32,000 nucleotides of DNA from [Mycobacterium] holstebronense (GTDB lineage Bacteria > Actinomycetota > Actinomycetes > Mycobacteriales > Mycobacteriaceae), in contig NZ_OY726398.1 of the NCBI RefSeq assembly GCF_963378105.1, forward strand, positions 4,459,230-4,491,229, read 5' to 3'. Made by a program: the position numbers and the translations under genes. The notes below the pieces were generated by a model that worked only from the letters and a program-made list of their open reading frames with translations, searched no databases and had not been told where the DNA came from. Below are positions 1 to 23,400 of this stretch, piece after piece (position 1 is the first letter of the stretch; each line of letters starts with the position of its first letter).

Positions 1-588
1 ACCAAAACCGCCCGCCGAACCACCGACACCACCAATGCCATCGGCCGACGTACCAGCAGCACCACCATCACCGAACCACAAACCACCAGAACCACCAGCA
101 GCCTGCGCCAGCGTCCCACCATCAATACCGTCAGCACCGTTACCGATCAGGATCTGACCGAAACCAAACAGGTTGATAAACGAATTAACCTGCTCACCAA
201 ACGGACTCAGAATCCACGCCTGCCCCAAGTCATGCAACGGCGTGTAGAACAACGAACCGAACCAGTCATCAGCGGCCGCCGAACCCGGCAGATCCGCCAC
301 CGACGCATCAAACGACAGACCCAAATTCGACAGCAGCGGCTCCCACGCCCCCTGGTCGAACAACGTGTCCCACGACGACGCCTGACTCAAATCACCCAAC
401 GCACCAGCCAGATCCGCACCGAACAGGTCAACCACCCAGTCCAGCTCATCAGCATGCGCCACAGGAGCCGCCGACAACGGCGACATCCCAAAGGTCAAAA
501 ACGCCCCAACCGCACTGCTGGCCCCCAACAGTCGCCGGCTACGCCGACCCTGCTGGCCGTTGCCCGAAGTGTTACGCCCTACTGCCAT
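1..588 (-). CDS. Signal-peptide PGRS-like glycine-rich protein; N-terminal 196 codons only, C-terminus runs off the window start
   Basis: Hand translation of the minus strand from ATG 588-586 gives 196 codons with no stop, ending in frame at nt 1. It reads MAVGRNTSGNGQQGRRSRRLLGASSAVGAFLTFGMSPLSAAPVAHA|DELDW...FGQILIGNGADG...GGSGGLWFGDGGAAGTSADGIGGVGGSAGGFG. AGGA (597-600) lies 8 nt upstream of the ATG. The leader is near-identical to that of the 17105-19609 protein. This ORF is absent from the supplied track, presumably because it has no stop inside the window. An alternative in-frame ATG at 639 lacks an SD. Confidence 0.65.
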   Translation of the reverse strand, partial: MAVGRNTSGNGQQGRRSRRLLGASSAVGAFLTFGMSPLSAAPVAHADELDWVVDLFGADLAGALGDLSQASSWDTLFDQGAWEPLLSNLGLSFDASVADLPGSAAADDWFGSLFYTPLHDLGQAWILSPFGEQVNSFINLFGFGQILIGNGADGIDGGTLAQAAGGSGGLWFGDGGAAGTSADGIGGVGGSAGGFG

Positions 589-675
589 TTGGGATGTCCT
601 ATCTGTGTGGCCCACAGTTGTGCTAGCTCTGTCTGTCATGAAGTTTGGATTTGGCGGCTTAGCTGCTCAGCAGGC

Positions 676-2430
676 TCAGCCGTAGAAGCCCAACGCCGCC
701 GCGATCTGGTTCGGAATGTCGTTGAGCCACTCCGACGCCACGCCGAAGAAGTTGCCGTTGATGCCCAGCACGCCCAGGTCGGACAGCCCCAGCCCGTCGA
801 TCAGGCCGTTGATATCGAGGCTGCCCAGGCCGAGGTCGGTGAGCAGCGAGTTGATCGTGCCGTCGAGGCCGAGGTTGGCAACGATGGTGTCCAGGTCGTA
901 GTTGTCCAGGCCGATCCAGCCGAGGAGGGTGCCCAGCGTGGGGTCGCCCAGCACGCTGGTCATCAGGTCGGTGATGAACTGGTCCAAGTGCACCTCGTCC
1001 AGGCCCAGACCACCCAGGATGCTCTCGATGGAGACACCGCCCAACAGGCTGTTGATGAACTCATCGAGAGACTGGTTGTCCAGGCCCAGGCCGGAGAGAA
1101 TGCCGGCGATCGAGATGCTGCTCAGCCCGAGGCGGTCGATGAACATGTCGATGTCGATGTTGTTCAGGCCCAGGTTGTTGAAAATCGACTGGATGTAGAT
1201 GTCGTTCAGGCCGAGGCTGTCGATCAGGCCGGACAGGCTCAGGCTGCCCATGCCCCAGTCCTCGAACAGGGTGAGCAACGTGGTGTCGGTCAGCCCCAGC
1301 CCCGCAACGACACTCGTGAAGAGTTCGGTCAACGTCGGGTCGAAGCCCCAATCGGTGAGGAACTGCCCCAGAGTGACATTGCCGGTCAGGTCGCCCAGAC
1401 CGTTGAACAGGTCCTCCAGCGTGAAGTCACCGATGCCCATCGCATCGACCCCTTGGATCACGGTGACGTCGTAGAGGTGCAGGTTCTGGAGAGTTACGCC
1501 AACGGTGTTGGTGCCCATCACCGCGCCGAGAGTGGGGTTGCCGGCCTTCTCGAGGAGGCTGGCCTGGTCGGGGGCGAGAATCCCCAACGGGGTGTCACCC
1601 AGGTTGGCGTAAGCCGGATCTGGGCTGGGAAGCGTGTACAGCAAGGCCTGAACCGGGATGTCGTTTACCGGAGTGTCGGGAGGGTAGCCCATGGTGTTCT
1701 CGCCGATCGGCATCTCCTGGAAGATGTCCCCGAGCGTCGTGTTGCCGTAATCGCCGATGAAGTCGCTCAAGGTGGCGCCGGGCGGGAACATGGAAAGCAG
1801 CATGTCCGTCAACGGAGTGTTGGCGCTGATGTCCGGTCCGAGGAAACCGTCGTTGAGCAGGTCAATCAGCGTCTGGTCGCCGTACTCGCCCAACATTCCC
1901 GCGAGCGCGCCGACGGTGACGGTGCCGAGGCCCATCTGCTCGAAGAAGTCGGTCAGCGGGGGGTCGCCGAACGAATCGGTCAGCAATCCGCCGATAGTCC
2001 AGGTCGGGTCGATCAAGCTGGCCAGGGACTCGTTGCCCTGAGCGCCGAGCAGGTCCTTGATCAGGCCACCGACGGTGGCGTCGTCCCCGCCGACGAAGCT
2101 CAGCACGAGTTCGGACAGGCTGGGGTTGCCGATGTCGGTCTGGTTGAGCAGGGCGATCAGCAGGCTGGCGACCGAGTCGCCGGGCTCGATGCCACCGAGG
2201 CTCTCCAGCAGCTCAGCGATGGTGGGGTTGCCGATGCCCGCCTCGTTGAAGAGGCCGATCAGCAACTCGGAGAGCGACTGAGTGCCGATGCCCATGTCGT
2301 TGAGCAGGTCCACCGGCGTCATGTGTCCGAGGCCGAGCCCGTCGAGCAGGTCGATGATCAGCGTTTCCAGCGGAACATCGCCGATACCGGCCTGCGACAG
2401 CAGGTCGGTGATGGTGGTGTCGCCCATGCC
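676..2430 (-). repeat. In-frame array of 14-residue G-[LI]-[GDNS]-x-x-[ST]-[LI]-x-x-[LI]-[LI]-x-x-[LM] units, often alternating with an 18-residue variant
   Basis: Read from the translation, e.g. GIGDVPLETLIIDLLDGL / GLGHMTPVDLLNDM / GIGTQSLSELLIGLFNEA / GIGNPTIAELLESL, and near the C-terminus GLNDIYIQSIFNNL / GLNNIDIDMFIDRL / GLSSISIAGILSGL. The boundaries are approximate. Confidence 0.7.
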
Positions 2431-3081
2431 GGACAGCTCGACCACGTCACCGATGTTGAAGTTGGCGTCGATCGGCTGCCCGGGGGTCAAGACACCGTTG
2501 AACAACGGGAAGTAGGCGCCCCCGAAGTCGACACCGCTGCTGCCGTTGAGGAAAGCGTCCAACAGCGTCGCCGGCGCGCCGATCAGAGCCGAGAACGACT
2601 TCATCGGGTCGGTGAAGATGTTGTTGACGATCTCGTCCATGATCTGCTGGAACGCGTTGCCCATGGTCACCCAAGGGCCAATGGCGGCCAGCAGCGAGTT
2701 CAGCCACAGCGGCATCTGCAGGTCGATGTCGACGGGGAAGGGGAAGGCCTGGACGCCGATGGTGGGCATCGAGTTGGTGAAGATGTTGATGACATCCGGG
2801 ATGCCGTTGATCGCCTCTTGCGGGTTCGCGAAGATGTGCTGCAGCAGACCCCACATGTCCACGGAGTTCTGGTTCAGCGCCTGCAGGTTCGCGATGGTGT
2901 TCTCGAACAGGTCGGTGTAGGGCGAGAAGAAGCCCGACGTGAGCGCAACACCGCGCTGCTCGACCGTGGCGAGCTGGTGCTGAAGCTGCGGCAGGTTCGA
3001 GGCCACGGGGGGAACCGCGACCAGGCCCACCCCGACGACAGCCAGGCCGGTGGTGACGTATGGACGAAGTGTTTGCTGCAT
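676..3081 (-). CDS. Acidic N-terminally anchored repeat protein (GLG 14/18-residue repeats), paralogue A; function unknown
   Basis: The track ORF is 676-3138. I prefer ATG 3081 (MQQTLRPYVTTGLAVVGVGLVAVPP...) because GGGAGGG (3086-3092) sits just upstream and the paralogue starts at the equivalent residue. The third codon position is C-rich, typical of mycobacteria. It has one N-terminal hydrophobic segment, a non-repeat domain of about 200 aa, then repeats to the C-terminus (...GNFFGVASEWLNDIPNQIAAALGFYG*). Confidence 0.8.
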   Translation of the reverse strand: MQQTLRPYVTTGLAVVGVGLVAVPPVASNLPQLQHQLATVEQRGVALTSGFFSPYTDLFENTIANLQALNQNSVDMWGLLQHIFANPQEAINGIPDVINIFTNSMPTIGVQAFPFPVDIDLQMPLWLNSLLAAIGPWVTMGNAFQQIMDEIVNNIFTDPMKSFSALIGAPATLLDAFLNGSSGVDFGGAYFPLFNGVLTPGQPIDANFNIGDVVELSGMGDTTITDLLSQAGIGDVPLETLIIDLLDGLGLGHMTPVDLLNDMGIGTQSLSELLIGLFNEAGIGNPTIAELLESLGGIEPGDSVASLLIALLNQTDIGNPSLSELVLSFVGGDDATVGGLIKDLLGAQGNESLASLIDPTWTIGGLLTDSFGDPPLTDFFEQMGLGTVTVGALAGMLGEYGDQTLIDLLNDGFLGPDISANTPLTDMLLSMFPPGATLSDFIGDYGNTTLGDIFQEMPIGENTMGYPPDTPVNDIPVQALLYTLPSPDPAYANLGDTPLGILAPDQASLLEKAGNPTLGAVMGTNTVGVTLQNLHLYDVTVIQGVDAMGIGDFTLEDLFNGLGDLTGNVTLGQFLTDWGFDPTLTELFTSVVAGLGLTDTTLLTLFEDWGMGSLSLSGLIDSLGLNDIYIQSIFNNLGLNNIDIDMFIDRLGLSSISIAGILSGLGLDNQSLDEFINSLLGGVSIESILGGLGLDEVHLDQFITDLMTSVLGDPTLGTLLGWIGLDNYDLDTIVANLGLDGTINSLLTDLGLGSLDINGLIDGLGLSDLGVLGINGNFFGVASEWLNDIPNQIAAALGFYG

Positions 3082-3130
3082 GACGCCCTCCCGGACGAAA
3101 GTTCCGAAGTTGCTTTGCCGTTCAGGTCGC

Positions 3131-4800
3131 TTAGCCACTGAGCACCGCCGTGATCTGGTCCCCTAGGCCGTCAAGCCAGTAGGACATGGAGCCCCAGAAC
3201 TCGCCGATCTGCGCGTTGATCACGGTCATATCCCCGAGCCCCAGGGACGCCAGGAGCTCGTCGACGGTCTGGAGGCCGAAGTCGCCGAGCAGCGCACTGA
3301 CCGTCGAGGTCCCGAACAGCGAGTCGATCAACTCGTTGAGGGTCTGGTCGCCCAGGCCCAGGGCGAGCATCTGGTCGGCGATGGTGCTGATGCCGAAGAA
3401 CTGGTCGAACAGGTCGCTGAGCGACTGACCGCCGAGGCCGAAGTCGTTGAGCATGTCGTTGACGGTCTGCGGGCCCAGCGCCTGACGGATGATGTCGTCG
3501 AGGTGCATGCTGCCCAGCCCACCGTCGTCCAGAGCATTGGCGACGGTCTGGTCACCGAAGGTCTGGTTGAGCAGTTCACTCATGGTCTGGTTGCCCAGAC
3601 CCGACTCAGCGAGCATGTCGATGATCGTCTGGTCAGCGGGCACCAGTTGGTCGATCAGGGCCGACAGGGTGGTGTCGCCCATGACGCCGAGCAGCGAAGA
3701 GAGCGGCGCGTCGGGCATGCCGGCCAGCACCAGGTCGGTCAGGGTCTGATCGGCCATGCCCGAGTCGGTGAGCATCTGACCCAGGGTCATCGAGAAGTTC
3801 GTCGAGATCATCTCGTTGAGGGTCATCTCGCCCATCGGGCCGAGCATCGAGATGAGGGGGTCGTTCAACTGGTCGCCCAAGAAGGAGGCGATGGTCGTAC
3901 CCGCCAGGGAAGCCGACAGCAGAGCGTCACCGCCCTTGTCCAGCGGGGTCATGCCGGTAGCGGCGAGCATGTCGTTGACCGTGAGGTTGCCGGTGATGTA
4001 GGACAGGTTGCCGAGGATGGTGCCCACCGACAGATTGGTGATACCCAAAAGGTCGGTGACGTCCCCGACCGTCACCGCGCCGAAGCCCGCGAAACCCATG
4101 ACCTCGGCGACTGTGGTGTCGCCGTAGGAACCGAGTACCACCGAAACCAACTGGCCGATGTCAGCGTCGGCAAGGCCGGCCGAACTGAGCAGGTCCATGA
4201 TCGTCTGATTGCCCAGGCCCAGCCCGCCGAGCAGCGAGGTGATGAACTCATGGGTGGTCTGGGTGCCGAGGCCCGTGGCGTCGAGCATGTCCGCCGCGCT
4301 CTGACCGCCGAGGCCCAGCGCGTCCACCGCTGTTTGCAGCAGGCCGTTGAGTGTCAGGTCGCCGGCGCCGATGTCAGCGATGAGCTCGTTGACGGTCGGG
4401 TCGCCGATGCCCATCGCGTTGAGCACGTCCATGCCCAGGTCGGCCAGCTTGAGGTCGGCCAGACCGACGTCGCCGGCGATGTCGACGATCGTCGGGTTGT
4501 CGAAGCCCAGTGCGTTGGTGAAGTCGATGGCGATATCGGCGACCTGAACGTCGCCGATACCCAGCATGTCCATGAGTTCGGCGATGGTGGGGTTGCCGAT
4601 GCCCACCGCGTCGAAGATCGTGCTCAGCACGCTGGAAACCTCAAGGCTGCCCAGGCCGAGGGCGTTGATGACGTCGACGGGGGTGTCGTCACCCAGTCCG
4701 ACGCTGTCCAGCAGGCCGGTCAACATGCCGGCGACCTCAAGCGTGCCGATGCCGGTCTGGTCGAGCAGGCTGGCGATGGTCTGGTCGCCGATGTTGAGGT
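3131..4800 (-). repeat. In-frame 14/18-residue GLG repeat array (about 32-residue super-repeat)
   Basis: Read from the translation of paralogue B. The boundaries are approximate. Confidence 0.7.
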
Positions 4801-5437
4801 TGTTGGCCAGCTCCTCAGCGGTCTGGTCGATGATGAGGTTCTGACCGGGGACCAGGATGCCCTGGAACGCAAGAACGCTGCTGCCGGCGATGTCGACAGT
4901 GCTGGTGCCGTTCAGCCACGCGTCGACCAGACGCGGGAACGCGGTGAAGATGGCCGCGAACGGGTCCAGCGGATCATTGGGGTTGAAGATCTGGTTGAGA
5001 ATGTCCTGCATCGCGTCATTGACCGTGACCAGCGGGCCGATGATGCCCATCCCGATGGTCAGGATCGGCGAGAGCAGGACCATCAGCGGGTCGGAGCCGC
5101 TGATCGACGGCATGATCGACGTCAGGAAGTCGAAGACCTCCGGCAGCCGCGACAGCGAGCTCGGGTCGCTGAAGATCTGCTCCAGCAGGTTTCCCCAGCC
5201 GTTGTCGGAGCCCATCGCCGCCAGGTTGGTAGCGGTGTTGCTGAACAGGTCCTGCCACGGTCCGAAGAAATCAGCTGTGAGCTTCACAGGATGGTGCTGG
5301 ACCAACTCATGGGCCTGGCGAGGCTCAACTTGGGGCCGCAGCACCGCCGCGGGAACTGCCCCGTTGACCGCGATCAACGCGGCACCCGCGATCGCGACAC
5401 CGGGGGTGACGTACGGGCGAAGCGCGAGCTGCATCAT
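3131..5437 (-). CDS. Acidic N-terminally anchored repeat protein (GLG 14/18-residue repeats), paralogue B; function unknown
   Basis: 768-aa ORF starting MMQLALRPYVTPGVAIAGAALIAVNG, with AGGAG (5441-5445) immediately upstream; the start may be the second ATG at 5434. It shows the same domain order as paralogue A and a clean 14+18 alternation: GIGNPTIAELMDML / GIGDVQVADIAIDFTNAL / GFDNPTIVDIAGDV / GLADLKLADLGMDVLNAM / GIGDPTVNELIADI. The C-terminus GEFWGSMSYWLDGLGDQITAVLSG* parallels that of A. A 49-nt gap to gene A suggests an operon. Confidence 0.8.
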   Translation of the reverse strand: MMQLALRPYVTPGVAIAGAALIAVNGAVPAAVLRPQVEPRQAHELVQHHPVKLTADFFGPWQDLFSNTATNLAAMGSDNGWGNLLEQIFSDPSSLSRLPEVFDFLTSIMPSISGSDPLMVLLSPILTIGMGIIGPLVTVNDAMQDILNQIFNPNDPLDPFAAIFTAFPRLVDAWLNGTSTVDIAGSSVLAFQGILVPGQNLIIDQTAEELANNLNIGDQTIASLLDQTGIGTLEVAGMLTGLLDSVGLGDDTPVDVINALGLGSLEVSSVLSTIFDAVGIGNPTIAELMDMLGIGDVQVADIAIDFTNALGFDNPTIVDIAGDVGLADLKLADLGMDVLNAMGIGDPTVNELIADIGAGDLTLNGLLQTAVDALGLGGQSAADMLDATGLGTQTTHEFITSLLGGLGLGNQTIMDLLSSAGLADADIGQLVSVVLGSYGDTTVAEVMGFAGFGAVTVGDVTDLLGITNLSVGTILGNLSYITGNLTVNDMLAATGMTPLDKGGDALLSASLAGTTIASFLGDQLNDPLISMLGPMGEMTLNEMISTNFSMTLGQMLTDSGMADQTLTDLVLAGMPDAPLSSLLGVMGDTTLSALIDQLVPADQTIIDMLAESGLGNQTMSELLNQTFGDQTVANALDDGGLGSMHLDDIIRQALGPQTVNDMLNDFGLGGQSLSDLFDQFFGISTIADQMLALGLGDQTLNELIDSLFGTSTVSALLGDFGLQTVDELLASLGLGDMTVINAQIGEFWGSMSYWLDGLGDQITAVLSG

Positions 5438-5888
5438 GCTCTCCTACGGACACTGACTACGGACGTTGCTTAAACTTACATGAGTTTTCCGTTTTGTCGA
5501 ACGGGAATTTTTGTAAGGAAAAACTTCATGAAAACCCCGGCGCATGACACGTAGTGCGATGCATTTCCGGCCCAGCGGACCGTGGTGGACCTGATATCGC
5601 AGCAGGCCCAGGAGTCGACCGAGGAGCTTCTCAGGTTTTGTTAACGGCGATTCGCGGCCGAGCCGCTCGTTAAGGCAGGAAGCGGCATGACCGCTACCAA
5701 CCTGATGACCCCGCTTGCCAGCAGGTTGCCCGATTCGACGACAAAGTCGCCGCCAGCTACTGGCCGGAAAGTGACGTCGATCACAGAAGTCAACGGCGCT
5801 TCGCTGCGCGGGCCGGCCTCGCTTCCTCAGCGGGGTTTCGCGCGCCGCGGCCGAGTGGCATGCGGCGGCGGGCTCAGCGGGGCTGACT

Positions 5889-8058: not shown

Positions 8059-9255
8059 TCAGCCCAGCGACGCCAGCGCCCGAACCAGCTGGTCGACTTC
8101 GGCCATCGTCGAGTAGTGGCCCAGCCCGACGGTGACCGCTCCCCCGATGTCATTGACGCCGATCGCGTCGAGCACCCGGGACCCGGCATTGGCGATCGCC
8201 AGCACACCGTTGTCGGCCAACCGCTGCACCACTCGTTCGGCCGGCACCTTCTGTACTGCGAAGCTGACCACCGGGATGCGCGCCTCGGGCTGGCCGATCA
8301 GCATCACCAGCGGCAGCGACCGCAAGGAACTCAGCAGGTACTCGAACAGCCGGTTCAGATACGCCGCGGCAGACTGCATCGATACCGCCAGCCGCTCGCG
8401 GCGGCTACCCCGGGCCGACTCGTCCAGCGACGCCAGATACTCGACACTGGCCACCAGCCCCGCCAGCAGACCGAACTGGTGCAGGCCGACTTCCAATCGG
8501 GCCGGGCCCACGGCGTGCGGGTCCAGCGACACCGACCCAAACGTGTCGATCAGCGCCGGGTCGCGAAAGACCAGCGCGCCCACCGGCGGCCCGCCCCAGG
8601 AGGCCGCGTTGACGGCCACCACGTCCGCCTCGACCTCGTTGATGTCGAGTAGTTGGTACGGCGCCGTGGCCGAGTGGTCGACGACGGCCACGCCGCCCAC
8701 ATCGTGGACCAGCTTGGTGACCGGCCGAAGATCGGTGACGGTGCCCAGTACCCCCGAGCCCGAGGTGAGTGCCACCAACCGGGTAGACGGGGTGATCAGG
8801 TTCTCCCACTGCCAGCTGGGCAGCTCCCCGGTCTCGATGTCGACCTCGGCCCACTTGAGCTTGGCGCCATAAAGGTTGGCAGCCCGCACCCAGGGGGCGA
8901 TGTTGGCCTCGTCGTCGAGACGGGTGACCACCGTCTCGTAGCCCAGGCTCACCCGCGACGACGCGGCATCGGCCAAAGCGCTCAACAACACGGCGCGATC
9001 GGGACCCAGCACCACCGCGGCAGACTCCGAGCCCACCAGATCGGCCACCGCCTGGCGGGCCGCGACCAACACCGCGGCACTGCGGCGGGCCGCCGGGTGC
9101 GGGCCGACCGCCTTCGCCAACGATCCCCGGAACGCGGTCGACACGGTGGTGGCCACCGAGTCCGGAATCAACATGCCCGACGACGAATCGAAATGAACCC
9201 ATCCGTCACCGAGCGTCGGGTGCAATCCGCGCACGCGAGCGACGTCATAGGCCAT
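8059..9255 (-). CDS. Class-V aminotransferase / cysteine-desulfurase-like protein, Rv3778c orthologue
   Basis: From ATG 9255 ([13 protein letters not shown]...) the protein is 398 aa, the length I recall for Rv3778c. It is colinear with and divergent from the Rv3779-like gene as in Mtb, and ends ...[19 protein letters not shown]. The track ORF start at 9387 adds 44 implausible residues. Confidence 0.85.
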
Positions 9256-9361
9256 GCCAGCCACCTTAAAACTTCTCAAAATCGATCGGTGAACGTCTCG
9301 GATAACGAGATAGCTCCCCCGCAATACGGAGCCAGGCCACCTTGGCAGACATACTAGTGCA

Positions 9362-11314
9362 GTGCTTCTGGGCTTCGGAATGGTCACGGCGCTTTTGCTG
9401 CTGGTGCTTCCGGGTGCGCTCGTAGCGGCCGGCGCCGGGTTGAACTGGCCATTAGCCGTGGCGGTCGGCCCGGCGCTTACCTACGGAATCGTAGGCCTGG
9501 CCATCGTCCCTTTCGGCGCTATCGGAATCCCTTGGAACGCAACCACTGCAGCGGCTGCATTGGTGGTGGTCGGCGTCGCGGTGTGCGGCTTGGCGAGGGG
9601 AATGCGATCTTTGCTGGGGCGCCGTCCCGGCATCCATGTGGCGGCCCCCTCGCCGGCACTGTGGCCGATACTCACGGTGGCCGCCGGAACGCTGCTGGGG
9701 GTATTGCTGATCGGCTGGGCCGCGCTGCGGGGAATCGCGGACTGGCAGAGCATTCCCAGCACCTGGGACGCGGTGTGGCACGCCAACACCGTCCGATTCA
9801 TCCTCGACACCGGCCAGGCCTCACCAACTCACATGGGCGAGCTGCGCAATGTCGAAACCCACGCCGCGCTGTATTACCCGTCGGCATTCCACGCGCTGAC
9901 CGCGGTGCTGTGCCAACTGACCGGCGCCGCACCCACGACCGGCTACACCCTGGCCGGGCTGGCCGCCTCGGTGTGGCTGTTTCCGGTCAGCGCAGCGCTG
10001 CTCACCTGGAATCTGCTGCAGCGGGTGACGAGCACCGCTGTGACGGCGGTGTCGGCGGGCACCGCCGCCGCGCTGTCGGCGTCCTTCACCGCGCTGCCCT
10101 ACGTCGAGTTCGGCACCGCCGCGATGCCCAATCTGGTGGCTTACGGGCTGGTGGCGCCGGCCTTCGCGCTGATCACCGCGGTCCGCATCCTGCGGGACCG
10201 GATCTGCGTGGCGGTGCTGGCGCTACTGGGCGTGTTCTCGGTACACCTGACCGGGGGCGTGGTCACGGTCTTGCTGGTGGCGGCCTGGTGGCTGAGTCCC
10301 TCCGACGGTGCGCTGTGGAATCCGCTGCGCGGGAAGCGACGGGACACCCTCGCCCTGGCCGGGGTCCTGATCCCGACCGGGCTGCTGCTGTTGCCGCAGC
10401 TGCTGAGCGTGCGCAAGCAGGCCGAGATCATCGCCGGGCACGCGTTTCTGACCCACGAGGGCCGCAAGTCGGGTCTGCGCGACGCGCTGCTGATGCACAC
10501 CCGCCACCTCAACGACTTTCCGATCCAATACGCGCTGGTGGCGCTGGCCGCGGCGGGGGCAGCAGTGCTGGTGGCCCGCAAGGTGTGGTGGCCGTTGGCG
10601 CTGTGGGCGGTGCTGGTGGTGGCGGTGGTGCAGTCCTCGGCTCCGCTCGGCGGCCCGGTAGGCAACGTGGTGGGCACGTTCACCGACCTGTTCTACAGCG
10701 ACCCGCGCCGAATCATGGCGGCGATGACGCTGCTGTTGGTCCCGATGGCCGGAGCGGGCCTGGCGGCGCTGGCCGCGTTCGTTTCCAAGCCGGCGGGAGT
10801 GCGGGCGCGGCCGGTACTGACCGGGCTGCTGCTGGTGACCGCGACGGTCGGGCTGGCCTGGCATTACCTGCCGCGGCACGCGTTCTTGTTCGGCGACAAG
10901 TACGACTCGGTGATGGTCGACTCCCGAGACCTGCGGGCGTACGCCTACCTGGCCGACCTGCCCGGGGCCCACGACACCGTGATCGGCAACGCCAACGTCG
11001 ACGGCAGTGCCTGGATGTACGCAGTCGCCGGCCTGCACCCGCTGTGGACGCACTACGACTACCCTCAGCAGCAAGGCCCCGGCCCGGAGCGGTTCATCTT
11101 CTGGGCATACGCCGACGACGCCGACACCGATCCGCGAGTGGCGGCTGCCGTGCACGACCTCAATATCCGCTACGTGCTGATCAGCAGCCCGACGGTCCGC
11201 GGGTTCACCCTGCCCGACGGGCTAGTGTCACTGGAGAAATCGCGGTCCTGGGCCAGGATCTACGACAATGGCGGGGCGAGTATCTACGAATGGCAAGGAG
11301 AGACAGCGCGGTGA
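9362..11314 (+). CDS. Polytopic membrane glycosyltransferase (GT-C type), Rv3779 orthologue
   Basis: GTG start. The 650-aa protein has many Ala/Leu/Val-rich hydrophobic segments followed by a C-terminal soluble domain. Its position directly upstream of bpa matches Mtb Rv3779, reported as the arabinogalactan galactosamine transferase. Confidence 0.85.
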
Positions 11315-11868
11315 CCACCAGCGGCAGCAGCGCAGACGGCATGGACAGCGCCGGTGGCGTCGAGATCATCAGCGGCGCCGACCCGCGGCTGCTGGCGGCT
11401 GGGCTCAACGGCTCCACTGACGCCGCCGATGATGACGAGGCGTCGCTGACCGACCTGATCGAACAGCCCGCCAAGGTGATGCGGATCGGCACCATGATCA
11501 AGCAGCTGCTCGAAGAAGTCCGCTCGGCTCCCCTGGATGAGGCCAGCCGGATTCGGCTGCGCGAGGTCCACTCCGCCAGCATTCGCGAGCTCGAGGACGG
11601 CCTGGCCCCGGAGCTGCGCGAGGAGCTGGACCGGCTGACACTGCCGCTACGCGAGGACGCCACACCGTCGGACGCCGAACTACGGATCGCCCAAGCCCAG
11701 CTGGTGGGCTGGCTGGAGGGCCTGTTCCACGGCATCCAGACCGCGTTGTTCGCCCAGCAGATGGCTGCCCGGGCGCAGCTGGAGCAGATGCGCCACGGCG
11801 CCCTGCCCCCTGGCGCCGGCGGGCCCGGAAGTCACAGCCAGGGCCACGGCTCCGGCCAGTACCTGTAA
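11311..11868 (+). CDS. bpa: Bacterial proteasome activator Bpa/PafE (Rv3780 orthologue)
   Basis: This is the in-frame tail of track ORF 9532-11868. GTG 11311 overlaps the upstream TGA (GTGA). The sequence ...EQPAKVMRIGTMIKQLLEEVR...LVGWLEGLFHGIQTALFAQQMAARAQL...GSGQYL* carries the C-terminal GQYL motif that docks Bpa on the 20S proteasome. An alternative ATG start lies at 11341. Confidence 0.9.
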   Translation: MTTSGSSADGMDSAGGVEIISGADPRLLAAGLNGSTDAADDDEASLTDLIEQPAKVMRIGTMIKQLLEEVRSAPLDEASRIRLREVHSASIRELEDGLAPELREELDRLTLPLREDATPSDAELRIAQAQLVGWLEGLFHGIQTALFAQQMAARAQLEQMRHGALPPGAGGPGSHSQGHGSGQYL

Positions 11869-11887
11869 GCCAGCCAGCGGAATTGCC

Positions 11888-12697
11888 GTGTCTGACAACG
11901 ATCCTCGTATCGAAACCCGCGACGCCTGGGTCGAGTTCCCCATCTTCGACGCCAAGGCACGATCGCTGAAGAAGGCGTTCCTCGGCAAGGCCGGCGGGGC
12001 GATCGGGCGCAACAACTCCAATGTGGTGGTGGTCGAGGCGCTGCGCGACATCACCATGTCACTGTCCTTGGGCGATCGCGTCGGTCTGGTGGGGCACAAC
12101 GGCGCCGGAAAATCCACCCTGCTGCGGCTGCTTTCGGGAATCTACGAGCCGACTCGCGGGTCGGCATCGGTGGTCGGGCGGGTGGCGCCGGTCTTCGACC
12201 TGGGTGTGGGTATGGACCCGGAGATCTCCGGCTACGAAAACATCATCATCCGGGGGTTGTTCCTCGGACAGACCCGCAAACAGATGGCCGCCAAGGTTGA
12301 CGAGATCGCCGAATTCACCGAGCTGGGCGACTATCTGGCGATGCCGCTGCGCACCTACTCCACCGGTATGCGGGTGCGGTTGGCGATGGGCGTGGTCACC
12401 AGCATCGACCCGGAGATCCTGCTGCTCGACGAAGGCATCGGCGCGGTGGACGCCGAATTCTTGAAGAAGGCCCAGACCCGGCTGCAGAAGTTGGTGGAGC
12501 GGTCCGGGATCCTGGTGTTCGCCAGCCATTCCAACGAATTCTTGGCTCGACTGTGCAAGACCGCGATGTGGATCGACCACGGCACCATCCGGATGACCGG
12601 TGGGATCGAGGAGGTGGTCGGCGCCTACGAAGGCCCGGATGCGGCCCGGCACGTACGCGAGGTGCTTGCCGAGACGCAGGCCGGGGATCAGCCGTGA
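11888..12697 (+). CDS. rfbE: ABC exporter ATP-binding subunit (Wzt/RfbE, Rv3781 orthologue)
   Basis: GTG start, 269 aa. It has Walker A GHNGAGKST, the signature YSTGMRVRL and Walker B ILLLDE, and is syntenic with Mtb. Confidence 0.9.
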   Translation: MSDNDPRIETRDAWVEFPIFDAKARSLKKAFLGKAGGAIGRNNSNVVVVEALRDITMSLSLGDRVGLVGHNGAGKSTLLRLLSGIYEPTRGSASVVGRVAPVFDLGVGMDPEISGYENIIIRGLFLGQTRKQMAAKVDEIAEFTELGDYLAMPLRTYSTGMRVRLAMGVVTSIDPEILLLDEGIGAVDAEFLKKAQTRLQKLVERSGILVFASHSNEFLARLCKTAMWIDHGTIRMTGGIEEVVGAYEGPDAARHVREVLAETQAGDQP

Positions 12698-13614
12698 CCG
12701 AAACCGTCTACGCCGTCGTCGTCACCCACCGGCGGCCCCAGCAGCTGGCCGAGTCACTGAAGGCGCTGACAACCCAGACCCGGGCACCCGACCACGTGAT
12801 CGTGGTCGACAACGACTTCGGCTCTGGTGACCCGACGGTCGCCGAGCTGGTGGCCGGCCAACCGGTGCCGTGCACCTACCTCGGGTCGCGACGAAACCTG
12901 GGCGGCGCAGGAGGTTTCGCGCTGGGCATGCTGCACGCCCTGGCCGCCGGCGCGGATTGGGTATGGCTTGCCGACGACGACGGCCGTCCGGCGGACGCCG
13001 GCGTCCTGTCGGCGCTGCTGGACTGCGCGGCCAAACATCGGCTGGCCGAGGTGTCCCCGATGGTGTGCAACATCGACGACCCGTCCCGGCTGGCCTTTCC
13101 GCTACGACGCGGGCTGGTGTGGCGGCGCGAGGTCGGCGAATTGCGCAGCGGCGCATCGGATGAGGATCTGTTGCCCGGAATCGCGTCGCTGTTCAACGGG
13201 GCACTGTTCACCGCGGATGCCCTGGACGCGGTCGGTGTGCCGGACCTGCGGTTGTTCATGCGCGGCGACGAGGTGGAAGTACATCGCCGGCTGGCTCGGT
13301 CCGGACTGGCATTCGGGACGTGCCTGAACGCGGCCTACTTGCACCCGTGCGGTTCGGCGGAGTTCAAGCCGATCCTTGGCGGCCGGATGCACGCCCAGTA
13401 CCCGGATAGCGCCGCCAAACGTTTCTATACCTACCGCAACCGCGGCTATCTGATGGCTCAGCCCGGCATGCGCCGGTTGCTGGTCCAGGAATGGCTGCGG
13501 TTCGGCTGGTTCTTCCTGGTGTCGCGCCGCGACCCGGCCGGCCTGATGCAGTGGGCCCGGCTGCGCCGACAGGGACGCCGAGAACAGTTCGCCAAACCGG
13601 AGGGGCAGCAGTGA
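12694..13614 (+). CDS. glfT1: Galactofuranosyltransferase GlfT1 (GT2, Rv3782 orthologue)
   Basis: GTG 12694 overlaps the rfbE stop (GTGA). The 306-aa protein starts VTETVYAVVVTHRRPQQL...VIVVDN...LADDDG (GT-A DxD region). Length and position match Mtb GlfT1. The track ORF start at 12553 lies inside rfbE. Confidence 0.9.
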   Translation: MTETVYAVVVTHRRPQQLAESLKALTTQTRAPDHVIVVDNDFGSGDPTVAELVAGQPVPCTYLGSRRNLGGAGGFALGMLHALAAGADWVWLADDDGRPADAGVLSALLDCAAKHRLAEVSPMVCNIDDPSRLAFPLRRGLVWRREVGELRSGASDEDLLPGIASLFNGALFTADALDAVGVPDLRLFMRGDEVEVHRRLARSGLAFGTCLNAAYLHPCGSAEFKPILGGRMHAQYPDSAAKRFYTYRNRGYLMAQPGMRRLLVQEWLRFGWFFLVSRRDPAGLMQWARLRRQGRREQFAKPEGQQ

Positions 13615-14441
13615 GCTTCGACGACGTTGCCGCGCAGTCCAAGACGTTTGCGCGGGCACGGGCCGATCTGGTGGACGGGTTCCGCCGCCACGAGTTGTGG
13701 CTGCACCTGGGCTGGCAGGACATCAAGCAGCGCTATCGGCGCAGTGTGCTGGGCCCGTTCTGGATCACCATCGGCACCGCGACCACGGCGGTGGCGATGG
13801 GCGGCCTGTACTCCAAGCTGTTCCACCTCGACCTGGCGGTGCACCTGCCGTACGTGACGCTGGGGCTGATCGTGTGGAACCTGCTCAACGCCGCCATCCT
13901 GGAGGGCGCCGACGTGTTCGTCGCCAACGAGGGACTGATCAAGCAGTTGCCGACGCCGTTGAGTGTGCACGTCTACCGGTTGGTGTGGCGCCAGATGATC
14001 CTGTTCGCGCACAACATCGTCATCTATCTGCCGATCGCGCTGATCTTCCCGAAACCCTGGTCGTGGGCGGATCTTTCGGTGATTCCGGCACTGCTGCTGA
14101 TCGCCCTGAACTGCGTATGGGTGTCGCTGTGCTTCGGAATTCTGGCCACCCGCTACCGCGATATCGCTCCACTGTTGTTCTCGGTGGTGCAGCTGCTGTT
14201 CTTGATGACGCCGATCATCTGGAACTACGACACCCTGCGCGCTCAGGGAGCGTCACGCTGGACGGCGGTGGTGGAGTTCAACCCGCTGATGCATTACCTG
14301 GACCTGGTGCGGCTGCCGCTGCTGGGGGCGCATCAGCCGCTGCGGCACTGGGCAGTGGTGCTGGTGCTGACCGTGGTCGGCTGGGCGGTGGCGGCGCTGG
14401 TGCTGCGCCAGTACCGGGCCAGAGTGGCGTACTGGGTGTAG
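13611..14441 (+). CDS. rfbD: ABC-2 type exporter permease (Wzm/RfbD, Rv3783 orthologue)
   Basis: GTG 13611 overlaps the glfT1 stop (GTGA). The 276-aa protein contains WLHLGWQDIKQRYRRSVLGPFWITI, the typical ABC-2 permease N-terminal motif, followed by multiple TM segments. Confidence 0.9.
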   Translation: MSFDDVAAQSKTFARARADLVDGFRRHELWLHLGWQDIKQRYRRSVLGPFWITIGTATTAVAMGGLYSKLFHLDLAVHLPYVTLGLIVWNLLNAAILEGADVFVANEGLIKQLPTPLSVHVYRLVWRQMILFAHNIVIYLPIALIFPKPWSWADLSVIPALLLIALNCVWVSLCFGILATRYRDIAPLLFSVVQLLFLMTPIIWNYDTLRAQGASRWTAVVEFNPLMHYLDLVRLPLLGAHQPLRHWAVVLVLTVVGWAVAALVLRQYRARVAYWV

Positions 14442-17104: not shown

Positions 17105-19609
17105 CTACGGCTGGCCGACGGGCGGCTCCGGAGCGGTACCCGGGGTACCGGCCTGGCCGGGGGCACCGTCGCTCTCAGCATCCGGGCCCACGCCACCGGC
17201 GCCGCCGTCGCCACCGGCGCCTCCCACGCCGTCAGCACCCGGGGTGTCACCGGCGCCACCGTTGAGGCCATCATCACCCAGCGCCGGGGTGACGACATCG
17301 CCACCGTTACCGCCGTTGCCGGCATTGCCGCCCTGGACCTCACCCGCGCCACCAGCGCCGCCGTCGCCACCAGCGCCACCCTGGACGCCGTCGATCGGGC
17401 CAGAGGTGTTCGGGAGGTTAAGCACAGCGTTCGGGTCGCCCCAGCGGATGTCGCCGCCGGCGCCGCCGTTACCACCGACACCGCCGTTACCGCCGACGCC
17501 GCCGGTGCCGTCGGTGTTCGCCAAACCTGCGCCACCGGCACCACCGTCGCCGGCCTCGCCACCGTTGGAACCAACGGCATTGAGGTCGTTACCACCGTTG
17601 CCGCCGGCACCACCGTTACCACCGGTGGCACCGCTGCCGCCGGCCCCACCGGCGCCACCGGCACCGGTGACATTGCCTGGCGACCCCACCGGGTTCTCAA
17701 CGGCAACAGCGGAAGTGATGTCGGGTGTGTCGCCACCGTTACCGCCGGCACCACCGTTGCCGCCATCGCCGATCTGGCCATCGCTGCCGTTTGTCGCTCC
17801 GAGGCCAGCAGCGCCACCGTCGCCACCTGCACCACCGGCACCACCGTTGCCGGAGCCGCTGAAGCCATGGATGCCGCCGTTCTCGCCATGAATCCCGAAG
17901 CCGCTGACCCCGCCGTCACCGCCGACAGCACCGCTGCCGCCGAGACCACCGTTGCCGCCGTTGCCGGTCTGGCCACCGCCATTACCACCGGCTCCACCGG
18001 AACCACCGGCACCACCGTTCTCACCATTGCCGGCCGGACCGCCGTCACCGCCGGCATCGGGTTCCACCGTTCCATCGGCACCGTTGGCGCCGGCAGTGCC
18101 GTTACCGCCGTTACCGCCGTTGGCGCCGTCAGCGTCCACACCCGCGGCACCTGCGTTGGCGCCAGCACCACCGGCCGCACCACCGGCCGCGGCCGCACCG
18201 CCGTTACCGCCCGCGCCACCGTTACCGGCGTTACCGCCAGTCCCAACGCCGTCCGCGCCGACGCCGCCGACACCACCGAGCCCGCCGTTTCCGCCGACGC
18301 CACCGTCGCCGTTGGCACCAACCACACCATCGACCGAGCCCTTACCGGCCGCGCCACCGACACCACCGACACCACCGATCGCGCCGGCGCCACCATTACC
18401 ACCGGTACCGCCGTCGCCATCGCCATTATTGGCGAAGCTGCCCTCGGCGCCGGCGATACCGGCACCACCGTTGCCGCCGGCACCACCGACGCCGGCCGCG
18501 CCACCGTTACCTGCGACGCCCACGGTGTGAACACCGAAGAACCCACCGCGGCCACCGTTACCGCCGACACCACCGTTACCGCCGACACCACCGTTACCGG
18601 CGTTGCCGCCGTTGCCGTCCTGGGTGTCCGCGCCTGCAGCCCCGTTACCACCGATGCCACCGACGCCACCGACGCCACCGGTACCACCGGCACCGGAGTT
18701 GCCGAAGAGGCCGGCCACACCGCCGTTACCGCCCGCGCCACCGTTACCGGCCGTCCCGCCAGCCAGGCCGACGCCACCCGCGGCACCGGTACCGCCGGTA
18801 CCGCCGGTGCCACCCGCGCCACCGTTGCCGATCAGGAAGCCACCGTTACCACCGACACCACCGGCGAAACCAATCACTCCGATGTCGCCGATGCCGCCCT
18901 GGCCACCGGCGCCACCGTTGCCCATGAAGAAGCCGCCGGCGCCGCCGTCGCCACCGAGGCCGAAGAAGCTGCCGCCGTCGCCACCGTTGCCGATGAGGCC
19001 CGCGTTGCCACCGTCAAGGTTGAAGGTGGTCGAAGCGAACTCGTAGGTGCCGTTCTCGATGTCAGCCAGGGTGACCGCGTTACCACCGTCCATCAGGACC
19101 GCGCCGTTGGCGCCGATCACGTCACCCTCGGCGTTGACAAACGCGCCGCTACCGCCGTCGCCGAACAGGAAGCCACCACCGGATGCAGCGTGGTAGACCA
19201 GGTCGCCGTCACCGTTGATGCTGACGTAGGCACTGTCGCCGTTGTCGAAAATGCCGTCGAGTCGCAGACCACTGTCGATCAGGAACTGACCGATGCCGTA
19301 AATCGGCTGGTAGATGACCAGATTGAGGGTGTTCGCTACGAGCGCGTTGAGGTCGTCCAGCGGGGTGGTGGCCGCCGAGCCGGCCACGTCGCCATCGAAC
19401 GCGCCAAAGCCGGACCAGTCAAACCCCGACGTGTCGGCCGACGGCAGCTCGATCCAGCTGAACAGGTCACCAAAGTCGAAATCGGCGCTAGCCGGCGCCG
19501 CCATGATCGGCGTCATGCCAAAGGCCAGGAAGGCGCCCACGGCACTGGTAGCGCCCACGACGCGGCTCACTTTGCGTTTGCCGTTCTTGTCAGCGAAGCG
19601 GTAAGACAT
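17105..19609 (-). CDS. Signal-peptide PGRS-type glycine-rich protein (no PE domain)
   Basis: The 834-aa protein has GAGGGG (19615-19620) 5 nt upstream of ATG 19609. The N-terminus is [42 protein letters not shown]|DFDFG. A non-repeat region of about 190 aa is followed by GGAGG/GGNGG/GGTGG repeats, ending ...[12 protein letters not shown]. Confidence 0.85.
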
Positions 19610-20446: not shown

Positions 20447-23400
20447 CTATATCCCCGGCTGGTTCGCCCCGTTCACCCCGGGAGCGTCCACACCGGACAC
20501 CTGGTCACCGTATTGGATCACCAGGTTGGTGTCTTCGCCGTTCCCGCCGACGTAGCCACTTCCGGTTCCGCTACCGCCGTTGCCGCCGGTGGAGCTGGAA
20601 TCAGTGACCGTCGATGCGGTACCGGCTCCGTCGTTGCCGTAGGCACCCAGCCGGGCCTGGCCACCGTCGCCACCTTCGCCGCCGTCGATGCCATCGCCGC
20701 CACGACCACCCACAGACGTTCCGTCGGCGACGTTGCCGATGTCACCACCGGTGACGATGCTCGCCTTGCCGCCGTCGCCGCCCTGGCTGTTCGCACCCGT
20801 AGCGTCACCGCCGGCACCGCCGGTGGACGTGCCGCTGGACATGCCTCCCGGTCCACCGCCAAGCCCGCCGTTGGTCAGCTTGGAGCTCTGGATGACCGAA
20901 CTACCGCCGTCACCGCCCTGGCTGTTGGCGCCGGTCGCGTTTCCGCCGGCACCACCGGTGGAGTGGCCGTAGCTGATACCGCCGACAGCGCTGGTCGCCG
21001 AGGCGTCACCGGACTCCAACTCACCCCAGCTGCCCTTGCCACCGGTGCCACCGTCGGTGCCGTCGCCGCCGCGGCCGCCCTGGGCGATCGCGTCGTAGCC
21101 GCGGTAGCCGATCGATCCGCCCGGGTTGTCGACCACCAGGTAGCCCGCGCCACCGTCACCGCCGATGCCGTTGTCGCCGGTACCGCCTTCGCCGCCGAGG
21201 GCTTGTGCGGTGGTGATCATCGAGTCGGTGCCGGTAGCCGAAGCAACCGCTTCACCACCGGCGCCACCCTGGCCGCCGTTGGCTGCACTGCCACCGTCAC
21301 CGCCGACGACCTCGACATCGTGGATCTTGGCCCCATCGGTGGCGGCGATGGCGGCGTCGCCACCGTCCGCGGTAGCGCTGCCGCTGCCGCCGGTTACCGA
21401 ACTCTCGGTGATCCAACCGCCGCTGGACGCAGTGGCCGTGGCGTTTCCAGCGCCGCCATCGGCTCCCACCTCCCCCGCTTGGGCGGTCACACCAGCAATG
21501 GTGCTGTTCGCACCGTCAGCGGTGATAGCAGCACTGCCGCCGCTGACGCCTGCTCCAGCGTCGGTTCCAGTGGCGCGACTGCCGGAGATCAAGCCGCCAT
21601 AGGTGGCCTGCACCAGACCGCTGCCGCCTGCTGCGCCGGCCGCACCGTCGCCGCCGGTAGCACTGCTGTTGTAGATGTTGATGCCTGCATCCGCCGGGTC
21701 AGAGCCATTGCTGGTGTGGCCGATCCGGCCCTCACCACCGGCACCACCGTTGACGCCATTGGCACTGTCGCCGCCGTTACCACCGGTCGCCGACCCGTTG
21801 GTGATGCTGCCGCCGTAGCCACCGGAGCTGATCCGGCCGGTACCACCGGCACCACCGGTGTGGCCGACGCCGCTTTCGGTGGTACCCGTACCGCCGTTGC
21901 CACCGTGGGCCGTACCGGTGACGGTGCCACCGCCACCGCTTTGCATGTCAGCACGGATCTGAGCGTCACCGCCGATACCACCGGTGCTGCCGTAGCCAAC
22001 ACCGTCGCCACCGTTGCCGTTGGTGGCTTGACCGCCGGCGTGAGCATCTGCACCGAAGGCGCCCACCTGCGCGTAGAAGGTGTAACTACCGCCCTTGCCG
22101 CCATCGAGACCGTCACCACCGTTACCGCCGGTGACAACAGTGTCCGCGTCCACGGTGGCACCGTCACCGGCGGCGTAAATCCGTCCACCGGAAGCATTTC
22201 CACCGATCCCACCGTGACCCGAGTTGTCCGCGGTGGCGTTACCGCCCGTACCGCCGTAGATGGTGCCGGCAGCCGAACCACCGTCTTGGTAGTACGAGCC
22301 GGTAGCGATACGGGCCGAACCGCCCAGACCACCCACACTGCCGCCGCCGGTTCCGTCACCGCCAACACCGGCCAACGCCTTACCCGTCACATCCCCACCA
22401 AGGTGGGCAGTGTGGTCGTTGGTCTGGTAGATGGTCCACAGCTCCGAGTAACCGCCGGCGCCACCCTTGCCGCCGTCGAACCCGTCACCGCCGTTGCCAC
22501 CGATGGCCTGCGCGTCGTGGACGCTGCCATCCAATTGCGAGGCCACCGACGCATACCCGCCAGCGCCACCCGTACCACCGTTGCCGTCACCGACGCCGGC
22601 GTTACCACCGGTCACGGTCACATTGGTGACGTCGCCACCCAACCGATCCGCCGTCCCGTTATCCGCCGCCGACGGCAGTGTCCCGCCAGCCATGATGTTG
22701 GCCGCACCACCGGCAGCACTATCCGAACCATCACCACCAGTCACGTGGCTGTTGTCGACGTTGCTGGAGTCAGTGGCCACCAGTGATGCGTTGCCACCCA
22801 GCGCGCTTCCGCCGGCACCGCCGTCACCACCGGTGACAGAGCTGTTCGAAACGGAGCTGCCCGAGGAGACGGTCGCCGTGGCCGAACCACCAGCACCGTT
22901 CACACCACCGTTACCGCCATCAACATCAAGACCGTTGACGGTGCCGCCGGTGACCGTGACGGTGGCACCGCCACCGGCCCCGGTGCCCGTACCGGCGTTA
23001 CCACCGGTGAGGTGAGCGTCGGTGACATTTCCGCCGCCGGTCACAGTCAAGCCACCCGAACCACCCAGCGTGGTACCGGTGCTCTCCCCAGCGGTCACCG
23101 AACTGTCAGCGACATGACCACCATCCGTGGTGATCCGCGCCCCCGGACCCTGCTGAGTACCGGCGCTGTTACCACCGGTGACCTGGCTGTTGGTGATGGT
23201 GTCACCCTCACCCCGGGCGATGATCACCGTGTCAGAGGTCACCCGGCCAGCGGCCCCAGGAACCCCGGCACCACCGTCACCACCGGTAGCAGTCACGCCG
23301 GTAACCGATGAGTCCTTACCGAGGGCCTGAACATAGGTGTAACCACCCTGACCGCCCAGGGCCCCGGCACCGGTGCCATCACCACCATCACCAGCGGTCA

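Follow-up and report, generated by a model that had tools for sequence, protein, structure and literature searches.

The locus considered here raises the question of what kind of protein is encoded by two adjacent, highly repetitive genes of [Mycobacterium] holstebronense, a Mycolicibacter of the M. terrae complex. The genes, termed B and A from upstream to downstream, lie within a stretch of 32,000 nucleotides of contig NZ_OY726398.1 (the window; all positions refer to it). A first-pass annotation, made from the sequence alone, had described positions 676-5437 as tandem paralogues in which an unrecognised repeat architecture is combined with a hydrophobic N-terminus, a domain of about 200 residues and a conserved C-terminal tail. 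The finding is real and exceeds chance. The array may indeed be called an unrecognised repeat, as had been claimed, whereas the flanking domain may not: judged by profile comparison, A and B are remote relatives of the porin-annotated protein GjpA, albeit not family members by the curated cut-off.

The gene pair and its acidic repeat array

Gene B, the upstream member of the pair (positions 3131..5437, minus strand), encodes 768 residues according to the list of open reading frames (ORFs); an alternative ATG at 5434 would give 767 residues. An AGGAG ribosome-binding site can be read from the sequence at 5441..5445 (minus strand), and about 450 nucleotides of non-coding, locally A+T-richer DNA separate the gene on its 5' side from a FadD-like gene. 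The stop codon of B is followed after 49 nucleotides by the start of the downstream member, gene A (676..3081, minus strand; 801 residues). The ORF of gene A reaches back to a GTG at 3138, which would give 820 residues; the true start is ATG 3081, because the sequence GGGAGG is found 5 nucleotides upstream (ribosome-binding site at 3087..3092, minus strand, read from the sequence) and the homologues all begin with MQQTLRPYVT. A promoter scan found no sigma-70-like site, which is uninformative as the host is a mycobacterium. Two long antisense ORFs on the plus strand (232..3141 and 3503..5473) were taken as by-products of the GC-rich coding sequence.

Both genes occupy the minus strand at the proposed positions and their products can be aligned over the full length with 32% identity (E 5e-74), which confirms them as real tandem paralogues. 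Protein A is 100% identical to P0001, a recorded hypothetical protein of [Mycobacterium] holstebronense. In comparison with eight orthologues, the ratio of non-synonymous to synonymous substitution rates (dN/dS) amounts to 0.22-0.54 for A and 0.20-0.49 for B. Values of 0.2-0.5 were obtained across all segments, and A and B are therefore functional coding genes under purifying selection; in the segment-wise comparison, dN/dS of the N-terminal domain and the tail mostly does not exceed the value for the repeats. The strong acidity and the scarcity of Lys and Arg that had been pointed out before are evident from the composition, with 94 Asp and Glu versus 6 Lys and Arg in A, 91 versus 9 in B and an isoelectric point of about 4.05 for each protein. 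Neither protein contains Cys.

Two thirds of each protein and nearly all of its negative charge (net about -70) are contributed by the repeat array, an acidic region with the predicted helix-loop character described below. In A, the array spans residues ~218-765 (787..2430, minus strand; 75 Asp and Glu, 3 Lys and Arg), in B residues ~215-732 (3242..4795, minus strand; 68 Asp and Glu, 3 Lys and Arg). Autocorrelation with a BLOSUM matrix at a lag of 14 residues gives z 5.1 in A and z 6.8 in B, and in B alone the signal also rises at lags of 32 (z 9.3) and 27 (z 7.3) residues. Repeats were counted with an iterated 11-column position-specific scoring matrix and 200 shuffles as control. The matrix converges to the consensus G-[LI]-G-[DN]-x-T-[LIV]-x-[DE]-[LI]-[LI] and detects 21 units in A and 26 in B, compared with 0.5 +/- 0.7 and 0.6 +/- 0.7 in the respective shuffles, so that the regularity noticed at first sight is borne out.

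The proposed alternation of 14- and 18-residue units, giving a super-repeat of about 32 residues, holds for the first third of the arrays only. Strict 18/14 alternation is limited to residues 229-420 of B and 218-295 of A, whereas later parts consist of runs of 14-mers (A 596-679) or follow a 14+13 pattern (B 613-719), and the middles (about A 400-548 and B 465-560) are irregular. In A, this central irregular stretch is better conserved. The glycines of the G-h-G turn are the array residues that are invariant in both paralogue families, and the lengths of the orthologues are fixed at 792-805 residues for A and 766-774 residues for B. Tandem repeats at the DNA level are absent from both genes, and the repeat units are therefore old.

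Within each unit, the hydrophobic positions 2, 7, 10, 11 and 14 (in the long unit also 15 and 18) fall on one face of a helix. The alpha-periodic hydrophobic moment is elevated (z 2.8 in A, 5.2 in B), while the beta-periodic moment is depleted. The segment T6-x-x-[DE]9 of the unit can be read as a helix N-capping box. An AlphaFold2 model of full-length A places one short helix in every unit, so that residues 210 to 770 hold about 40 helices; a loop of 6-7 residues, often with a one-residue bridge, leads into each of them. Its local confidence (predicted local distance difference test, pLDDT) is 65-85, but the predicted template-modelling score (pTM) is only 0.25, so that the tertiary structure is not established. 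A crop comprising residues 205-470 of B displays alternating helices of 7 and 11 residues separated by 7-residue loops, at a pLDDT of 39 and a pTM of 0.22, and was not used for fold comparison. The models thus support a helix-loop character of the units, in line with the amphipathic repeat noted before; as to the solenoid suggested along with it, they cannot tell how the helices pack.

Profiles of Pfam, NCBIfam and the PDB all fail to recognise the repeat unit. Full-length A and B did not match any Pfam or NCBIfam family, and single super-repeats gave no meaningful Pfam match at E <= 10, Xre_MbcA_ParS_C being the sole match and taken as chance. In PDB profile searches, nothing significant was found with the whole family, for which the N-terminal helix-hairpin-helix (HhH) domain of RadA ranked first (E 0.27), or with the super-repeat (best E 1.1, no HhH protein among the matches), and Foldseek found no match in the PDB. 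A leucine-rich repeat is likewise not indicated: Pfam leucine-rich repeat models do not match A or B, and the units comprise 13-18 residues rather than 20-30 residues with L-x-x-L-x-L-x-x-N. The array is distinct from leucine-rich, PE/PPE, PGRS and MPTR repeats, as the first-pass annotation had stated, and no confident match to a characterised repeat family emerged from the Pfam, NCBIfam and PDB profiles.

In sequence, the unit comes closest to PBS-lyase-type HEAT-like repeats, which were also picked up by the A/B profile search (a NACHT protein; P0185, P0123). Aligned with hhalign, the HEAT-like and the A/B unit score 20.5 with a probability of 54%, compared with 7.6 +/- 2.2 (maximum 16.5) for column-shuffled profiles. 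This similarity is suggestive, not proof; the Pfam models HEAT_2, HEAT_PBS and HEAT do not match A or B at E <= 1, nor single super-repeats at E <= 10. Apart from the HEAT_PBS similarity, the matches to P0123, P0145 and P0196, large proteins with unrelated Pfam domains, were judged to be driven by repeats or composition.

On sequence grounds, the array is a separable module. Its units directly follow ordinary signal peptides, with no GjpA-like domain, for example in three proteins of about 430 residues, one from a Mycobacterium metagenome-assembled genome (MAG; P0109) and two from metagenome contigs (P0110, P0139). P0103 of Mycolicibacter acidiphilus is a further repeat-only match, and variants of LGDLL type occur in other GjpA-like proteins (P0081-83, P0089, P0116). 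The A/B profile also matched P0207 (E 5e-13), a non-actinobacterial membrane protein of 964 residues from the metagenome of a low-GC organism. It comprises about 30 copies of a Gly-free 14-residue unit, L-[DN]-L-x-[DE]-x-E-h-A-x-L-I-x-x-L, with the period and hydrophobic pattern of A/B, and this repeat may represent an analogous fold.

The GjpA-like core and the position of the array

The regions flanking the array resemble each other in both proteins. Residues 1-216 of A (2434..3081, minus strand) comprise an L-R-P-Y motif and a hydrophobic N-terminus (residues ~1-27), followed by a GjpA-like core with the motif APATLLDAFLNG. The corresponding residues 1-213 of B (4799..5437, minus strand) comprise L-R-P-Y and a hydrophobic N-terminus (residues ~1-30), followed by the core with the motif RLVDAWLNG. 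Kyte-Doolittle analysis shows the N-terminal hydrophobic peak at residues 5-16, and for B at residues 10-16, in agreement with the N-terminal hydrophobic segment proposed for both proteins. The second hydrophobic patch had been ascribed to both as well; it exceeds the threshold in B (residues 115-122), but not in A. Within the A and B families, residues L5, R6 and P7 do not vary; with the distant relatives P0081-P0083 included, this still applies to L5 and R6. In the GjpA-like set, R6, P7 and Y8 are conserved.

Behind the array, both proteins end in a conserved strand and helix, formed by residues 766-801 of A (679..786, minus strand; GINGNFFGVASEWLNDIPNQIAAALGFYG) and 733-768 of B (3134..3241, minus strand; GEFWGSMSYWLDGLGDQITAVLSG). 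AlphaFold2 places the strand of the A tail at residues 770-778 and the helix at 781-796. With F778, G780, Q792, I793 and L797 conserved to at least 90%, the conserved tail described previously is confirmed.

An exhaustive profile search retrieved 1122 proteins at E <= 0.001. Most of these matches cover only the first 90-120 residues and belong to mycobacterial proteins of 350-500 residues that lack a Pfam domain; one relative of these N-terminal matches bears the name "outer membrane porin GjpA". For the corresponding NCBIfam model, NF033942, the curators have set a cut-off of 100 bits. The model gives 38.8 bits (E 6.2e-10) for the N-terminal 215 residues of A taken by themselves, 37.9 bits (E 1.2e-9) for repeat-deleted A and 22.4 bits (E 6.1e-5) for repeat-deleted B. 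Presumably, the model missed the full-length proteins because the repetitive array suppresses the score. Two of the 20 GjpA-like proteins that served as templates pass the cut-off (P0329, 157.8 bits; P0124, 146.3 bits), and P0089, a protein of 567 residues combining core, LGDLL-type repeats and tail, reaches 81.5 bits.

Profile-profile comparison extends this relationship. When the A/B family profile was aligned with the 20 mycobacterial GjpA-like proteins by hhalign (probability 99.5%, E 4e-23), residues 1-186 of A were placed on template positions 1-222, including a hydrophobic G-P-V helix and the motif P-A-x-x-x-D-A-F-L-N-G. The previous statement that no named family could be matched remains valid for the array, but the anchor and the domain of about 200 residues do match one. 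With the repeats deleted and a permissive setting, the alignment grows to 237 columns (E 8.8e-25), reaches from position 1 to position 298 of the 304 in the template and puts the A/B tail on the last GjpA-like helix, 'LINLSKAIARAIG'. Moreover, an intermediate protein, P0102, consists of core and tail with no array. Read from these alignments, the tail is probably the end of the same GjpA-like core, and the simplest reading is that the array represents an insertion of ~520-550 residues into this core, just before the closing strand and helix. PDB profiles yielded no solved structure for the GjpA superfamily (best E 0.22 for the GjpA-like set).

The leader itself, L-R-P-Y-x-T-x-G followed by a hydrophobic stretch and a Pro-rich segment, is located at 3081..3001 in A and 5437..5348 in B and recurs in P0117-P0225. 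An L-R-P-Y leader is common to more than 1000 mycobacterial proteins that belong to no Pfam family, many of which are named "PE-PGRS family protein" in UniRef. It may be a dedicated signal for sorting or anchoring.

Conservation of the pair, its neighbours and candidate roles

Full-length relatives of A and B were found only in Mycolicibacter species and a few uncultured Mycobacterium genomes. In all Mycolicibacter loci the gene order is B then A, with B orthologues that are 65-93% identical, and the order is kept at 35-43% identity in the MAG loci L021, L022 and L024. Two of these, L021 and L024, share MAG contig CAZGGK010000020.1, so that one uncultured Mycobacterium harbors two B-A pairs at a distance of about 20 kb; downstream of one pair lies a PGRS-like gene, downstream of the other a convergent gene of the beta-lactamase family.

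In Mycobacterium sp. GCA_008709575.1 (locus L004, 10001-13864), B-like and A-like modules are fused in that order into a single protein of 1287 residues (P0050). The second module lacks precisely the N-terminal ~44 residues and starts at about residue 45, after the leader. The fusion argues that A and B act together, and the start of the second module behind the leader argues that the first ~44 residues serve as a signal for export or anchoring and do not belong to the fold. The fused gene is located after clpC1 and lsr2, and its called start is probably about 36 nucleotides too far downstream, since the upstream frame reads MRRRSRAYIATGVVAVV. Some homologues (P0050, P0052, P0099) moreover possess a conserved Cys pair in the central non-repeat insert (about A 495-530), with the motif C-x(10-12)-C-S-x-T-L-N-S-x-(M/L)-G-x-N-(T/S)-V, which suggests a disulfide and an extracytoplasmic location.

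The explanation that we put forward, at a little short of an even chance, is that A and B form an exported envelope heteromer in which anionic helical rods are mounted on a GjpA-like base. Both would belong to the cell envelope of Mycolicibacter and act jointly there, probably in the form of a heteromer. Export is suggested by the single N-terminal hydrophobic segment, the Cys pair in homologues and the occurrence of the repeats behind ordinary signal peptides. The base would correspond to the GjpA core, composed of the L-R-P-Y motif with its hydrophobic export or anchor segment, a helical domain of ~190 residues and the closing strand and helix. Inserted between the last core strands, ~520-550 residues would provide ~40 amphipathic helices, all of them short, with G-h-G-[DN]-x-T turns in between. 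These would most likely pack into an elongated, rigid HEAT-like alpha-helical rod of fixed length, which might project from the base into the periplasm, the cell wall or the surface. Such a rod could serve as a polyanionic spacer or docking surface, while the base might mediate association with the membrane or mycomembrane and possibly form a cation-selective channel.

Several observations weigh against this proposal. The N-terminus displays no clear A-x-A cleavage site, and an inner-membrane anchor and a cleaved signal are indistinguishable. With about 38 and 22 bits on NF033942, A and B stay below the 100-bit cut-off and thus outside the curated family. The collinearity of core and tail was obtained with the permissive setting given above; taken alone, and compared with the closing strand and helix of the superfamily (G-x-G-x-h-G-x-h-h-x-L-x-x-x-I-A-x-A-I-G), the tail has its best match at the collinear position, in the last helix of the GjpA-like proteins, but with E 0.03-0.05 over 13 columns this is not significant. 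The rod has to be reconciled with the low pTM of both models and, in the crop of B, with the low pLDDT. As to the channel, GjpA of Gordonia jacobaea is reported to be a channel-forming cell-wall protein, an attribution taken here from its family name, and channel activity of such solvent-extracted proteins is weak evidence for function in vivo.

A different division of labor is possible, although we consider it rather unlikely. The function would then reside in the array, which would form a solenoid or fibril displayed at the surface and serve as adhesin, spacer or cation sink, and the N-terminal part would be a mere anchor with neither channel nor GjpA-type role. The large share of the array in mass and negative charge, its fixed length across species and the existence of P0109, P0110 and P0139, in which the module follows an ordinary signal peptide, are all in line with such a role. 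However, core and tail are conserved at least as well as the array, their dN/dS being generally equal or lower, and a core that is common to more than 1000 mycobacterial proteins is therefore more than a passive anchor.

Another possible partner is the PGRS-like gene located downstream of A (1..588, minus strand), which starts 88 nucleotides after the A stop codon and runs off the left edge of the window. Its product begins with a twin-arginine-like signal peptide (RRSRRLLG...APVAHA; GRRSRRLLGASSAVGAFLTFGMSPLSAAPVAHA), which is followed by a non-Gly domain of ~150 residues, the sequence 'GQILIGNGADG' and a PGRS-like Gly-rich region. It has neither a PE domain nor a Pfam match; the 'LIGNGA' element is reminiscent of the junction between PE and PGRS regions in PE_PGRS proteins. 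In M. terrae, the gene encodes 2985 residues. Draft assemblies of many Mycolicibacter species end within ~250 nucleotides after A (L005, L008, L010, L012, L016, L018-L020, L025), which is consistent with assembly collapse in a Gly-rich giant gene and leaves the annotation of this region systematically incomplete.

From this arrangement it could be supposed that A and B serve the PGRS-like giant as dedicated partners, providing a dock, a pore for translocation across the mycomembrane or a chaperone. The three genes would then form a PE- and ESX-independent PGRS display module in which a Sec/Tat-type signal replaces the PE domain. We regard this as doubtful. The short distance, with no terminator-like site between the genes, speaks for it, as do the assemblies that break right after A. 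Moreover, the N-terminal part of the PGRS-like protein is encoded directly downstream of A, at a gap of ~90 nucleotides, in most Mycolicibacter loci, and its domain also follows A in the divergent MAG loci L022 and L024 at 39-42% identity. However, the link is not universal: L021 and L004, the locus of the fused gene, carry a convergent gene of the beta-lactamase family downstream instead, and two other PGRS-like genes in the window have no A/B-like neighbour.

A still bolder combination appears more doubtful again. It assumes that a B/A heterodimer of GjpA-type mycomembrane proteins uses its two rods to hold or export the Sec- or Tat-secreted giant PGRS protein, so that PGRS display would be independent of PE and ESX. 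At the same time, the repeat would found an undescribed, Mycobacteriaceae-restricted class of extracytoplasmic acidic alpha-repeats, and the L-R-P-Y leader would be a dedicated sorting signal.

That the units are HhH motifs, and A and B nucleic-acid-binding arrays like the HhH repeats of topoisomerase V, is highly improbable. The sequence G-I-G-x-x-T-h-x-x-h-h does resemble the hairpin and second helix of HhH motifs, and the best PDB profile match was the RadA domain. However, with E 0.27 for this match, no Pfam HHH match, no HhH protein retrieved by the super-repeat profile, an isoelectric point of 4, 3 basic residues in the ~530 of each array and an N-terminal export or anchor segment, a DNA-binding function is essentially excluded. 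The identity as PE-PGRS family proteins, which derives solely from automatic UniRef names of several orthologues, deserves practically no credence, as it is contradicted by the lack of a PE domain or other Pfam match, by 13-15% Gly with no GGA or GGN runs and by the deviating repeat consensus, and as the label also adheres to GjpA-like proteins that have no PGRS region and is therefore a propagated misnomer.

The window contains three non-PE PGRS-like genes within 32 kb. In addition to the gene at 1-588, these are a gene at 17105-19609 (minus strand), encoding 834 residues in which a Sec-type signal peptide precedes a PGRS-like Gly-rich domain, and a giant Gly-rich ORF at 20447-31936 (minus strand) of at least 3829 residues with long higher-order repeats, a GC content of 0.70-0.75 and a strongly negative GC skew. 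Neither has a Pfam match. On the other side of the pair, the orientation of the FadD-like gene upstream of B varies among loci. The block of FadD, B, A and PGRS genes adjoins a stretch at 8059-14441 encoding a class V aminotransferase, a DUF6541 membrane protein, the proteasome activator Bpa, an ABC ATPase, a family 2 glycosyltransferase and an ABC-2 permease, a gene order which appears to resemble the Rv3778c-Rv3783 arabinogalactan region of M. tuberculosis.

Only a small number of proteins are known from the outer membrane and cell-wall space of mycobacteria, and those of helical structure are particularly obscure. The present comparison links more than 1000 unannotated and often misnamed ("PE-PGRS family protein") mycobacterial proteins to GjpA, the one relative with experimental data. 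It also indicates that a GjpA-like core tolerates the insertion of ~520-550 residues of a repeat that no database describes, and provides a candidate three-gene module of B, A and a signal-peptide PGRS giant. If A and B do form a heteromeric envelope complex, this would give a starting point for explaining how PGRS proteins that lack a PE domain come to the surface in the M. terrae complex. In practical terms, annotation is improved and a repeat family fit for submission to Pfam is defined; neither the family nor the leader motif is present in curated databases. The finding as a whole is taxonomically narrow.

Comparison with known systems

Among known architectures, HhH arrays share with A and B a G-h-G hairpin followed by x-x-T-h-x-x-h-h between two helices. 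They differ in being basic rather than acidic, no profile match to them is significant, and A and B are presumably exported. PE_PGRS proteins are likewise confined to mycobacteria, repetitive, acidic and, as proposed for A and B, envelope-associated, their name is carried by several A/B orthologues in UniRef and a PGRS-like gene adjoins A. In contrast to them, A and B lack a PE domain, Gly-Gly-Ala/Asn repeats and an ESX-type signal and are predicted to be helical.

The arrangement as two adjacent related genes in a mycolic-acid bacterium is shared with tandemly encoded cell-wall channels of hetero-oligomeric type in mycolata, PorA/PorH of Corynebacterium and NfpA/NfpB of Nocardia farcinica (Klackta et al. 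2011, as cited in PMC4559739). Furthermore, channel formation has been reported for the A/B relative GjpA, and the negative charge of A and B is expected to favour cation selectivity. However, a sequence relationship to either pair was not found; A and B exceed PorA/PorH in size by a factor of 10-20 and, while NfpA/NfpB are MspA-like, are predicted to be helical. An A/B heteromer is, moreover, suggested by synteny and one fusion only.

HEAT_2 and HEAT_PBS repeats, which form alpha-solenoids, are similar to the 18+14 super-repeat of A/B in their period of ~31-35 residues and two helices, and the HEAT-like turn L-G-x-I-G-x-G-[DN]-x-x-A-I-x-x-L resembles G-I-G-[DN]-x-T-h-x-[DE]-L-L of A/B. In A/B, however, G-h-G is present in each of the two super-repeat turns, the helices, of 7 and 11 residues, are far shorter, the loops, of 7 residues, are longer, and the proteins are extremely acidic and probably extracytoplasmic.

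The closest counterpart is GjpA of Gordonia jacobaea (Jimenez-Galisteo et al. 2017, listed as ref. 14 in PMC9854905). In the papers searched, nothing on GjpA as a porin was found beyond two citations. A and B differ from the GjpA-like proteins by the array of ~520-550 residues before the closing strand and helix, by their occurrence as a conserved paralogue pair and by the lack of the low-complexity C-terminal extension. They score 22-38 bits against a cut-off of 100. Despite these differences, the likeness begins with R-P-Y and the hydrophobic N-terminus and continues through a collinear helical core with the G-P-V helix and P-A-x-x-x-D-A-F-L-N-G and the following strand region (FNG/FGG-h-L-x-P-G) to, probably, the closing helix I-A-x-A-h-G, and both groups are found only in mycolic-acid bacteria.

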